A stretch of DNA of 2,827 nucleotides from Enterobacteria phage CUS-3: sequence record FN394987.1. The stretch is one strand, 5' to 3'. Each line of letters begins with the position of its first letter. The first letter of the stretch is position 1. A model generated the notes under the pieces. That model had not been told where the DNA came from, did not search any database, and was given only the letters and a program-made list of their open reading frames with translations. The translations under genes and the position numbers were made by a program. Positions 1 through 2,827 of this stretch are shown piece by piece.

Positions 1-543
1 ATGGCGCGCCCAACAAAGTATCAAGAGGCGTATGCCGAACAGGCACGCAAACTGTGCTTGCTGGGCTACACCGATGCAGAGCTTGCTGATTTCTTCGAAG
101 TCAGTGAGTCAACTATTAACAAGTGGAAGCTTGATTATCCTGAGTTTTCGGAGTCCATAAAAAAGGGTAAGGCCGTCGCTGATGCAGAAGTTAGTGACCG
201 TCTTTATCAACGCGCTATGGGCTTCGTGGCTCCAGACATCGATATTCGTGTTATTGAAAACAGAATTGTCGAAACTCCTCTTGAGAAGTATTACCCGCCT
301 GATACAACAGCTGCCATCTTCTGGCTTAAGAACCGACAGAAGGATAAATGGCGCGACAAGGTTGATCACGAGCTAACAGGCAAAGACGGCGGCGCAATCC
401 AGATTGAAACATCACCGATGAGTACTCTATTCGGAAAANNNNNNNNNNNNNNNNNNNNNNNNNNNNNNNNNNNNNNNNNNNNNNNNNNNNNNNNNNNNNN
501 NNNNNNNNNNNNNNNNNNNNNNNNNNNNNNNNNNNNNNTCTGA
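1..543 (+). CDS. Phage small terminase subunit-like protein (helix-turn-helix DNA-binding N-terminus); visible 1-438, 3' end hidden in N run
   Basis: ATG at 1-3 opens frame 1: MARPTKYQEAYAEQARKLCLLGYTDAELADFFEVSESTINKWKLDYPEFSESIKKGKAVADAEVSDRLYQRAMGF...WRDKVDHELTGKDGGAIQIETSPMSTLFGK. The layout (short N-terminal HTH-like segment, then a conserved core, ending in a GKDGG-type C-terminal region) matches what I remember of Sf6/lambdoid-type small terminase subunits. The first in-frame stop (TGA 541-543) lies just after the N run 439-538, so the true stop may be inside the masked 100 nt. No upstream context is available because the ORF starts at window position 1. Confidence 0.6.
   Translation: MARPTKYQEAYAEQARKLCLLGYTDAELADFFEVSESTINKWKLDYPEFSESIKKGKAVADAEVSDRLYQRAMGFVAPDIDIRVIENRIVETPLEKYYPPDTTAAIFWLKNRQKDKWRDKVDHELTGKDGGAIQIETSPMSTLFGKXXXXXXXXXXXXXXXXXXXXXXXXXXXXXXXXXX
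439..538. other. Run of 100 N (unresolved or masked bases)
   Basis: Directly visible in the sequence. It hides the 3' end of the terminase-like ORF and whatever lies upstream of the tailspike-like frame. Confidence 1.
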
Positions 544-1762
544 GCCATGTGTAAAATATTATGATGGCATTCTGTATCTGACGACCAGGGGGACATTAAG
601 TACTCAACCCGGTAGTTCATTGCACAGAAGCTCTGATTTAGGTACATCATGGAATTCTCTTCGCTTCCCAAATAATGTTCATCACTCAAACCTTCCTTTT
701 GCCAAAGTTGGCGATGAGCTGATTATTTTTGGCAGTGAGCGCGCATTTGGTGAGTGGGAAGGAGGAGAACCTGATAACCGTTATGCAGGAAACTATCCAA
801 GAACATTTATGACCAGAGTTAACGTCAATGAGTGGAGTCTGGATAATGTAGAGTGGGTTAATGTTACTGATCAGATTTATCAGGGCGGAATAGTTAACTC
901 TGCGGTTGGTGTTGGTTCAGTTTGTATCAAAGACAACTGGCTGTACTACATTTTCGGTGGGGAAGACTTTCTAAACCCATGGAGCATAGGGGATAACAAC
1001 AGAAAATATCCTTATGTTCACGATGGTCACNNNNNNNNNNNNNNNNNNNNNNNNNNNNNNNNNNNNNNNNNNNNNNNNNNNNNNNNNNNNNNNNNNNNNN
1101 NNNNNNNNNNNNNNNNNNNNNNNNNNNNNNNNNNNNNNNNNNNNNNNNNNNNNNNNNNNNNNNNNNNNNNNNNNNNNNNNNNNNNNNNNNNNNNNNNNNN
1201 NNNNNNNNNNNNNNNNNNNNNNNNNNNNNNNNNNNNNNNNNNNNNNNNNNNNNNNNNNNNNNNNNNNNNNNNNNNNNNNNNNNNNNNNNNNNNNNNNNNN
1301 NNNNNNNNNNNNNNNNNNNNNAGCGGCGGTGAAACAACGTCTTCAGCAGATGGTGCAATGATAACGTTGCATGGTTCCGGAAGCAGTACTCCACGTCGCG
1401 CGGTATATAACGCACTCGAACATCTTTTTGAGAACGGAGATGTTAAACCTTATCTTGATAATGTAAATGCTCTTGGTGGTCCGGGAAACAGGTTCTCGAC
1501 AGTTTATCTTGGCTCCAATCCTGTGGTTACCAGTGACGGAACATTAAAGACAGAGCCGGTCTCTCCTGACGAAGCATTGCTGGATGCCTGGGGTGACGTC
1601 AGGTATATCGCTTATAAATGGCTGAACGCTGTCGCTATAAAGGGGGAAGAAGGGGCGAGGATACATCATGGTGTAATCGCGCAGCAACTTCGTGATGTTC
1701 TTATTTCTCACGGACTCATGGAAGAAGAAAGCACAACATGCCGCTATGCCTTTCTTTGCTAT
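539..1762 (+). CDS. Tailspike/tail-fibre protein, endosialidase-like (sialidase Asp-box beta-propeller segment plus C-terminal intramolecular chaperone domain); partial at both ends, both ends inside N runs
   Basis: Frame 2 has no stop in any visible base from 539 to 1030 and from 1322 to 1762 (translated codon by codon). The two visible blocks are in the same frame across the 291-nt N run, which is a multiple of 3. Block 1: SEPCVKYYDGILYLTTRGTLSTQPGSSLHRSSDLGTSWNSLRFPNNVHHSNLPFAKVGDELIIFGSERAFGEWEGGEPDNRYAGNYPRTFMTRVNVNEWSLDNVEWVNVTDQIYQGGIVNSAVGVGSVCIKDNWLYYIFGGEDFLNPWSIGDNNRKYPYVHDGH. Block 2: SGGETTSSADGAMITLHGSGSSTPRRAVYNALEHLFENGDVKPYLDNVNALGGPGNRFSTVYLGSNPVVTSDGTLKTEPVSPDEALLDAWGDVRYIAYKWLNAVAIKGEEGARIHHGVIAQQLRDVLISHGLMEEESTTCRYAFLCY. 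The six-frame track lists no ORF here, apparently because no stop codon bounds it inside visible sequence. Start and stop are not visible; coordinates are the first and last visible codons. Confidence 0.7.
629..652 (+). other. Sialidase-type Asp-box (BNR) motif S-S-D-L-G-T-S-W
   Basis: Codons 629-652 read AGC TCT GAT TTA GGT ACA TCA TGG, i.e. SSDLGTSW. This fits the Asp-box consensus S-x-D-x-G-x-T/S-W that marks beta-propeller sialidases, including phage endosialidases. Only one copy is visible; others could lie in the masked 1031-1321. Confidence 0.6.
1031..1321. other. Run of 291 N (unresolved or masked), internal to the tailspike-like frame
   Basis: Directly visible. Length 291 = 97 codons, and the reading frame is the same on both sides. 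Confidence 1.
1532..1762 (+). other. C-terminal intramolecular chaperone domain (Peptidase S74, 'chaperone of endosialidase' type) with predicted Ser|Asp autoproteolytic site; domain continues into the N run
   Basis: Motif ...GSNPVVTS|DGTLKTEP...(about 35 aa)...IHHGVIAQQLRDVL. Ser is codon 1532-1534, Asp is codon 1535-1537, and GVIAQQ is 1670-1687. The pattern S-D-x-x-L-K followed 30-40 residues later by G-[LIV]-I-A-Q-[EQ] is the signature of the self-cleaving C-terminal chaperone of endosialidases, phage T5 L-shaped tail fibre and related tailspikes (family knowledge, from memory). Confidence 0.75.
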
Positions 1763-2179: not shown

Positions 2180-2827
2180 ATGTTGTTTTCCGTTGATGAT
2201 AATGGGTCAGGTAATGTTTTTGTATGTGGAGATCTTGTAAATAGCAAAGAGAATAAAGTTCAGTTCAATGGAAACAATAACAAACTTATTATAGAAGATG
2301 ATGTTGAGTGTCGATGGCTTACCGTAATATTTAGGGGTGATAATAATTACGTAAGAATACATAAAAACAGTAAGATTAAAGGTGATATTGTCGCAACAAA
2401 AGGTTCAAAAGTTATTATCGGTAGAAGAACGACAATAGGTGCAGGTTTTGAAGTCGTCACTGATAAGTGCAATGTTACAATTGGCCATGACTGCATGATA
2501 GCAAGAGATGTTATTTTGCGTGCATCAGATGGGCATCCTATATTTGATATTCATAGCAAAAAAAGGATTAATTGGGCAAAAGATATCATTATATCTAGTT
2601 ACGTATGGGTAGGGAGAAATGTCTCTATAATGAAAGGAGTATCTGTTGGAAGCGGATCTGTCATTGGGTATGGGAGTATTGTAACTAAAGATGTGCCATC
2701 TATGTGTGCAGCAGCCGGTAATCCAGCAAAAATAATAAAAAGAAATATAATATGGGCAAGAACGGATAAAGCGGAGCTAATTAGTGATGACAAGAGATGC
2801 TCCAGCTATCATGCGAAGCTCACGCAA
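2180..2827 (+). CDS. neuO: Hexapeptide-repeat (left-handed beta-helix) sugar O-acetyltransferase, NeuO-like polysialic acid O-acetyltransferase; 3' end runs off the window, true start may lie upstream in the N run
   Basis: Frame 2 is open from ATG 2180 to the window end (216 codons, no stop): MLFSVDDNGSGNVFVCGDLVNSKENKVQFNGNNNKLIIEDDVECRWLTVIFRGDNNYVRIHKNSKIKGDIVATKGSKVIIGRRTTIGAGFEVVTDKCNVTIGHDCMIARDVILRASDGHPIFDIHSKKRINWAKDIIISSYVWVGRNVSIMKGVSVGSGSVIGYGSIVTKDVPSMCAAAGNPAKIIKRNIIWARTDKAELISDDKRCSSYHAKLTQ. Repeated [LIV]-G-x-x-x-x-[IV] hexapeptide units (IGAGFEVV, IGHDCMI, VGRNVSI, VGSGSVI, IGYGSIV) and the C-terminal ...AAGNPAKIIK... are typical of LacA/Maa/NeuD-type acetyltransferases. A His sits in a DGHP loop (codon 2534-2536) with a Trp 24 residues later (codon 2606-2608). 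The gene is AT-rich (hand-sampled G+C about 30-35%, against about 45-50% upstream) and lies directly downstream of a sialidase-like tailspike, as neuO does in K1-specific P22-like prophage. The symbol is my best recognition; confidence in the acetyltransferase family is higher (about 0.8) than in the neuO identity. The six-frame track lists no ORF here, apparently because no stop codon lies inside the window. Confidence 0.55.
   Translation, partial: MLFSVDDNGSGNVFVCGDLVNSKENKVQFNGNNNKLIIEDDVECRWLTVIFRGDNNYVRIHKNSKIKGDIVATKGSKVIIGRRTTIGAGFEVVTDKCNVTIGHDCMIARDVILRASDGHPIFDIHSKKRINWAKDIIISSYVWVGRNVSIMKGVSVGSGSVIGYGSIVTKDVPSMCAAAGNPAKIIKRNIIWARTDKAELISDDKRCSSYHAKLTQ

Follow-up and report, generated by a model that had tools for sequence, protein, structure and literature searches.

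In the window, the whole 2,827-nt stretch of DNA analyzed here, a small terminase gene stands directly next to a fragment of a tailspike gene, with a short run of Ns between them. Does this adjacency exist in any phage or prophage genome, or does it reflect the way in which the sequence was assembled for deposition? A first-pass annotation, made from the letters alone, had described the arrangement as not a normal phage gene order and offered several readings of it: the N run could be a gap of unknown true length, the window could have been masked or concatenated, or the DNA could be a deleted or rearranged prophage remnant that kept only the terminase, tailspike, and conversion genes. We conclude that the window is almost certainly a concatenated multi-locus typing record of CUS-3, a P22-like prophage of Escherichia coli K1, and not contiguous DNA. 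The terminase and tailspike genes would then appear adjacent because the record strings four separately sequenced pieces together with N runs. The prophage itself is ordinary and already described, and the odd gene order is no true property of it, its structure being read here from complete genomes and not from the source strain.

Results

Layout of the window and its counterpart in the CUS-3 genome

Four segments of the window are readable (1-438, 539-1030, 1322-1762, and 2180-2827); the N runs between them measure 100, 291, and 417 nt. We used as reference the complete genome of CUS-3 (CP000711.1; 40,207 nt), a prophage of E. coli K1 strain RS218, and mapped the segments to it by pattern searches. 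All four lie on its minus strand, with segment 1 at 22705-22268, segment 2 at 4013-3522, segment 3 at 3230-2790, and segment 4 at 2372-2368 plus 2234-1592, and the real intervals between consecutive segments are 18,254, 291, and 417 nt.

Segment 1 (window positions 1-438, plus strand) is the small terminase gene of prophage CUS-3, an ATG-started frame of 146 codons that meets no stop before the Ns and from which only the stop codon is missing. It is identical to the reference and falls within the CDS at 22265-22705, annotated as “phage terminase small subunit,” minus its stop. The spacer that follows (439-538) is exactly 100 N long; its length is arbitrary, and it stands for about 18.25 kb of unsequenced prophage DNA. 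Segment 2 (539-1030, plus strand) is an internal fragment of siaK1, the gene for the endosialidase tailspike, and holds codons 487-650 of 981, which encode the C-terminal half of the catalytic beta-propeller. A second internal fragment of the same gene, segment 3 (1322-1762, plus strand), holds codons 748-894, encoding the end of the stalk domain and the start of the C-terminal intramolecular chaperone domain. Both fragments map within the siaK1 CDS at 2526-5471 of CP000711.1. The N filler between them (1031-1321) has the true length of 291 nt, or 97 codons, found from 3522 to 3230 in the reference, and takes the place of the unsequenced siaK1 codons 651-747; the siaK1 frame is unbroken across it ((1322-539) mod 3 = 0). 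The last N run (1763-2179) is likewise of true length, its 417 nt corresponding to those that intervene in CP000711.1 between 2790 and the neuO ATG at 2372, and it covers what was left unsequenced between segment 3 and the start codon of neuO, namely, the 3' end of siaK1 and the intergenic region. Segment 4 (2180-2827, plus strand) is neuO, the gene for a polysialic acid O-acetyltransferase, which begins at its start codon, is partial at the 3' end, and has had its AAGACTC repeat removed. The order siaK1 then neuO, at the true spacing of 291 and 417 nt, is that of prophage CUS-3.

The terminase and tailspike pieces are far apart in complete genomes

The 18,254-nt interval of CP000711.1 is occupied by the genes for TerL, portal, scaffold, coat, three head-completion proteins, and three ejection proteins, and by immI with mnt and ant; it also includes the first 486 codons of siaK1. 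The chromosome of APEC O18 carries the same alleles at the same distance of 18,254 nt; between them lie the genes for TerL, portal, capsid, gp4, gp10, ejection proteins, Arc/Mnt, and Ant, and the prophage of this chromosome adjoins intS and a tRNA-Arg gene. The P22-type late operon and the tRNA-Arg integration that characterize CUS-3 are thus present in complete genomes with the same alleles, in regions that are absent from the window.

When positions from a whole-window search were combined with those from a segment-1 search in 18 complete E. coli chromosomes, the distance from the terminase to the tailspike segment ranged from 17,178 to 21,283 nt and was 18,254 nt in 10 of the 18. In ATCC 11775, where the distance is 21,243 nt, the additional length includes ISEc12, which sits between ant and the gene for the tailspike, and immI differs in gene content; the morphogenesis genes of this strain are all present. 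Segments 1 and 2, neighbors in the window, are therefore not adjacent in CP000711.1, in APEC O18, or in the 18 chromosomes. On a larger scale, a search of 5,426 complete E. coli genomes, which links matches lying up to about 1.9 kb apart, linked the terminase piece to the rest in none of them. The best-ranked places in these genomes cover only 539-2827 (56% of the query). A place with all four segments would head the ranking, at 71% coverage, like the FN records described below in the phage collection, and none of the 5,426 genomes has one.

These distances settle several points raised by the first-pass annotation. Its description of a terminase-like ORF followed by a 100-nt N run was accurate, and so was its suggestion that the run is a gap of unknown true length, given that 100 N correspond to 18,254 nt in CUS-3 and to 17.2-21.3 kb in the 18 chromosomes. 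That annotation had also named the finding that would make this an ordinary prophage, namely an unsized gap with the full morphogenesis gene set in between, and this is what CP000711.1, APEC O18, and ATCC 11775 contain. The notion of an abnormal gene order does not survive, the genomes having a canonical late operon with about 18 kb between the two pieces.

Seventeen sibling records share the layout

A megablast search of the phage collection found 17 records (FN394218, FN394986, and FN394988-FN395002), each exactly 2827 nt long, that match the window in four pieces over 1-2827 with identities of 98.1-99.9% and carry the same four gene annotations. Within the phage collection, all four segments are found in one place only in these 17 records. 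Their titles name the CUS-3 proviral terminase, siaK1, and neuO, declare them partial, and give a genotype of the form GT_n (GT_4, GT_7, and GT_1 were seen). The CDS coordinates (1-438, 539-1030, 1322-1762, and 2180-2827) are identical in FN394988, FN394991, and FN394218, where they are flagged as partial by “<” or “>”; these three records represent three different E. coli K1 host strains, whose names are IMT numbers. Segment boundaries and spacer lengths thus recur across strains.

The window is byte-identical to none of the 17 siblings in the collection, the closest differing at 2 bases. Their run of accessions skips FN394987, and the window may be that entry. In FN394988.1, whose GT_4 title and CDS flags show that the depositor declared the genes partial, the N runs stand at the positions they have in the window, 539-1030 is annotated as a partial siaK1 CDS, and the sequence has 2 base differences from the window (at 1500 and 1574). 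Because the Ns occur in the deposited sibling records, they belong to the deposits and were not added by the scan.

The small terminase segment

Small terminases recognize phage DNA, recruit the large terminase through a C-terminal tail, and initiate packaging together with TerL. The protein encoded by segment 1 matches PHROG 309, “terminase small subunit,” over residues 1-142 (E = 2e-68), and its last 38 residues (109-146) match the Sf6 gp1 small terminase (PDB 3HEF, 4DYC, and others; E ~6e-11), so that the match to a solved small terminase covers residues 109-146 only. A Pfam search with the whole protein matched no family. For the N-terminal residues 1-108, in which a helix-turn-helix domain of the Sf6 type was sought, there was likewise no Pfam family and no significant alignment to Sf6 gp1. 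At the DNA level, at least 60 complete E. coli chromosomes carry the segment at 100% identity. In genomes the gene ends in ...GGAAAATGA (seen in APEC O18), and its TGA stop overlaps the ATG of the large terminase gene. This 4-nt ATGA overlap, with a gene annotated as “PBSX family phage terminase large subunit,” is present in both APEC O18 and ATCC 11775, and places the small terminase gene immediately upstream of the large one. The label of small terminase for segment 1 holds on the evidence of PHROGs, PDB sequences, and gene position.

The tailspike segments

Endosialidase tailspikes bind and cleave the K1 capsule's alpha-2,8 polysialic acid; an N-terminal head-binding domain anchors them to the P22-type tail, and a C-terminal chaperone domain is needed for them to trimerize. 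Segment 2, read in frame 1 (164 aa), matches the Pfam family PF12217 (End_beta_propel) at profile positions 192-355 of 367 (E = 1.6e-104), in agreement with the earlier remark that the tailspike frame starts inside a beta-propeller. Segment 3 matches PF12219 (End_tail_spike) at profile positions 91-160 of 160 (E = 7e-33) and PF13884 (Peptidase_S74; E = 8e-12). In the full-length siaK1 protein, residues 1-113 match Pfam PF09008 (Head_binding), a P22-type head-binding domain. This domain lies upstream of window base 539, as do the N-terminal extension of the endosialidase and the propeller's first half. It had been argued from the window that there was no room for a head-binding domain; this is not so in the real gene, in which 486 codons, PF09008 among them, precede base 539. 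The “missing” domain is merely unsequenced for the record.

neuO and its excised repeat

Segment 4 encodes a hexapeptide-repeat acyltransferase (PF00132, Hexapep; E = 4e-11) with the left-handed beta-helix hexapeptide core of a NeuO polysialate O-acetyltransferase, and its DNA is 99.8% identical to the neuO of CUS-3. NeuO O-acetylates the K1 capsule; slippage of an AAGACTC repeat turns it on or off. In CP000711.1, the 5' end of neuO reads ATGTT-(AAGACTC)x19-GTTTTCC. In the window, ATGTT (2180-2184) is joined directly to GTTTTCC, and the AAGACTC heptamer occurs nowhere in it. An exact probe for the 5' end of neuO fails in CUS-3 only at the excised repeat, with no mismatch otherwise.

The repeat has been reported to lie two nucleotides past the start codon and to number 2-93 copies in natural isolates (PMC3046976). 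Its absence from this position in the window belongs to the record rather than to the gene: the zero-repeat junction occurs in the typing records only and is absent from the three genomes examined. Moreover, the span from 539 to 2827 is longer than that of the window by a whole number of heptamers in 18 of 18 chromosomes, which carry 8-49 copies of the repeat. The excess in strain MS7163 amounts to 21 heptamers, in agreement with the 21 repeats reported for it (PMC13001214). The sibling FN394991 has ATGTC in place of ATGTT before GTTTTCC, which could mean that the repeat was trimmed in a shifted register, or could be a SNP. Presumably the repeat was taken out of the records as being hypervariable and useless for genotyping.

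Discussion

How the record was probably made

The mapping, the distances, the identical layout of the siblings, and the partial-CDS annotation are direct observations, and together they fit a record composed from pieces. Four stretches, each sequenced on its own (one covering the small terminase gene, two from within siaK1, and one with the 5' two-thirds of neuO), would have been set down in the order of the prophage late region. The interval between terminase and tailspike, about 18 kb and unsequenced, would have been represented by a conventional 100-N spacer, and the two short gaps in the siaK1-neuO region by N runs exactly as long as the reference intervals (291 and 417). With the hypervariable heptanucleotide repeat deleted from neuO at its 5' end, all genotypes would have come out equally long. 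From the record titles, the partial-CDS flags, and the layout, we infer that PCR amplicons were produced for the GT_n scheme and then strung together by the depositor. This scheme is probably that of Mordhorst et al. (2009), because the IMT strain names and GT_n labels fit the E. coli K1 collection of that study. Passages in PMC13001214 and PMC3046976 cite Mordhorst et al. (2009) for the link of CUS-3 and neuO to sequence type complex 95; a literature search with the accession numbers of the typing records found no citing paper.

Alternative explanations

One alternative is that the window derives from a CUS-3 remnant shaped by deletion or rearrangement: some 18 kb of morphogenesis genes would be gone, along with the 5' half of the tailspike gene, and the terminase, the truncated tailspike, and neuO would have come to lie together. 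What speaks for it is the bare juxtaposition in the window, together with the fact that the interval does vary in CUS-3-like prophages, with ISEc12 in ATCC 11775 and a range of 17.2-21.3 kb. This range is still at least 17 kb in 18 of 18 measured chromosomes, and the terminase-tailspike join was found in none of the 5,426 complete E. coli genomes. Independent deletions would not give 17 records from different strains with a layout identical to the base; a deletion would explain neither the exact count of 100 Ns nor the precise excision of the repeat from neuO, and the records are titled and flagged as partial genes. The terminase and the truncated tailspike are not physically contiguous; in the window they are joined only by N. 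Because 17 records have identical layouts and the spacing was 17-21 kb in all complete genomes checked, we reject the remnant proposed in the first-pass annotation as exceedingly improbable. A related idea places the loss in the source isolate itself: this K1 strain would truly have lost the CUS-3 morphogenesis genes, and its terminase, tailspike, and neuO would form a defective capsule-conversion island. The typing PCRs would still work in such a strain and so could not reveal the loss; we give this idea a vanishingly small probability.

Two further readings concern how the Ns arose. A genomic stretch that is contiguous, with bases turned to N by the scan pipeline or by a repeat-masker, would have N runs that are all of true length. 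The second and third runs (291 and 417) are exactly so, and the siaK1 frame is continuous across the second; the first run, with 100 N for 18,254 nt, is not. Since the GenBank siblings were themselves deposited with these N runs, and the neuO repeat is deleted, not masked, this reading has next to no chance of being correct and is rejected. Of the earlier proposal that the window had been “masked or concatenated,” it is thus the concatenation that stands, on the sibling layout and the mapping. The other reading is a draft whole-genome or prophage scaffold, in which contigs were ordered on a reference and joined by gaps instead of amplicons being concatenated by hand. A gap whose size is not known is customarily written as 100 N, and the segments do follow the order of the reference prophage. 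Contig breaks would not, however, make segment ends coincide to the base in 17 records of different strains, and the ends fall at gene landmarks (the terminase from its ATG to its last sense codon, and neuO from its ATG). The records are named “genotype GT_n,” the repeat was excised in-frame, and the junction letter differs in one sibling. We therefore consider a draft scaffold very improbable, and retain the concatenated typing record as the explanation.

Implications for the use of public records

The relevance of this case is one of quality control only. A run of N in a public record may represent a distance of any size, and a multi-locus typing entry that is listed under the name of a phage can mimic an odd gene order in a sequence-only scan. 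In the window, two gaps are sized (291 and 417) but a third is not (100), and the phase-variation tract of neuO is left out without any sign; such records can therefore show neither distances nor whether neuO is on or off. There is no new biology here, CUS-3, its endosialidase tailspike, and NeuO being already well described.

Comparison with known systems

The closest relatives of the window are the typing records FN394218 and FN394986-FN395002, with which it shares the length of 2827 nt, the N runs, the four partial CDS coordinates, and the zero-repeat neuO junction. Compared with CUS-3 itself (CP000711.1; P22-like, Lederbergvirus), the gene identities are the same, seven matching end probes of 28-32 nt show no mismatch, and segments 2-4 are 99.8% identical; there, however, 18,254 nt of a canonical P22-type late operon separate the terminase and tailspike pieces, for which the window has 100 N. 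The beta-propeller, stalk, and C-terminal chaperone domains of the K1 phage endosialidases (K1F, K1E, and 63D) are recognized in the window fragments with E values from 1e-104 to 1e-12, whereas the P22-type head-binding domain (PF09008) at the N terminus of the CUS-3 enzyme lies outside the window. Finally, the small terminase of the window resembles Sf6 gp1 (PDB 3HEF, 4DYC) in its last 38 residues, which are near-identical (…GKDGGAIQIETSPMSTLFGK), in its size (146 vs. 140 aa), and in the position of its gene directly upstream of and overlapping that for TerL, but its residues 1-108 are not Sf6-like in sequence, and this N-terminal part appears to be of another type.

Sized and unsized gaps in a composite typing record

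The N runs in the window are not equivalent. Those at 1031-1321 (291 nt) and 1763-2179 (417 nt) have exactly the reference length, unlike the 100-N run that follows the small terminase gene, so sized and unsized gaps are mixed in one record, and the two kinds are indistinguishable from the sequence of the record itself. Across the run at 1031-1321, the reading frame of siaK1, the endosialidase tailspike gene, is unbroken.

The start of neuO, the capsule O-acetyltransferase gene, has also been edited. Its phase-variable AAGACTC repeat, present in 8-49 copies in genomes versus zero in the window, was removed from the record, leaving the junction ATGTT|GTTTTCC at 2180-2191 (the corresponding positions are 2235-2367 in the complete CUS-3 genome, CP000711.1, and 2180-2191 in a sibling typing record). 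The zero-repeat, always-in-frame neuO of the window is artificial. In the sibling FN394991, the junction reads ATGTC instead of ATGTT, reflecting either trimming in a shifted register or a single-nucleotide polymorphism.

Possible structural variants between terminase and tailspike

The distance from terminase to tailspike falls into discrete classes of 17,178, 18,254, 18,657, 20,213, 21,243, and 21,283 nt in 18 complete chromosomes, which suggests that the ejection-protein/immI region of CUS-3 exists in a few structural forms. The class examined, 21,243 nt, is that of ATCC 11775, the E. coli type strain, in which the IS21-family element ISEc12 lies between ant and the tailspike gene (18597-20899 and 20994-23906, respectively, for the element and the gene in the extracted region of NZ_CP033092.2). 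Because the tailspike CDS is annotated there as 2913 rather than 2946 nt, ISEc12 may have clipped its 5' end, where the head-binding domain is encoded, and the tail of this prophage may consequently be defective. This strain also differs in its immI region, with a Clp protease-like gene and other Arc-family genes.

Modules shared with other phages

Both endosialidase segments (539-1030 and 1322-1762) are 99.8%-99.9% identical in the phages vB_EcoP_ZX5, vB_EcoP-720R6, Phi05_2388 B, and Phi05_1999 B, where neuO is unmatched at the same place; some relatives thus appear to carry the siaK1 tailspike without an adjoining O-acetyltransferase gene.

The small terminase gene (window 1-438; 1309-1749 in the APEC O18 region; 738-1178 in that of ATCC 11775) was matched in 586 E. 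coli genomes and, in a search of a phage collection, at 97%-98.6% identity in phages with no match to the tailspike or neuO segments: Escherichia phage N7 (MH717096.1) and phiKp_30 (LC768498.2), whose listed host is Klebsiella. By these matches, the packaging module would circulate far outside CUS-3. Its product is a “hypothetical protein” (WP_000113731.1) in both RefSeq chromosomes whose annotation was inspected, and the feature beneath the match is so labeled in 60 of 60 chromosomes among the matches listed. Despite this label, and although no Pfam family was found for it, the protein matches PHROG 309 strongly. Its likeness to Sf6 gp1, a solved small terminase, is confined to the last 38 residues, so that it looks like a mosaic of a common TerL-binding tail and a distinct N-terminal part.
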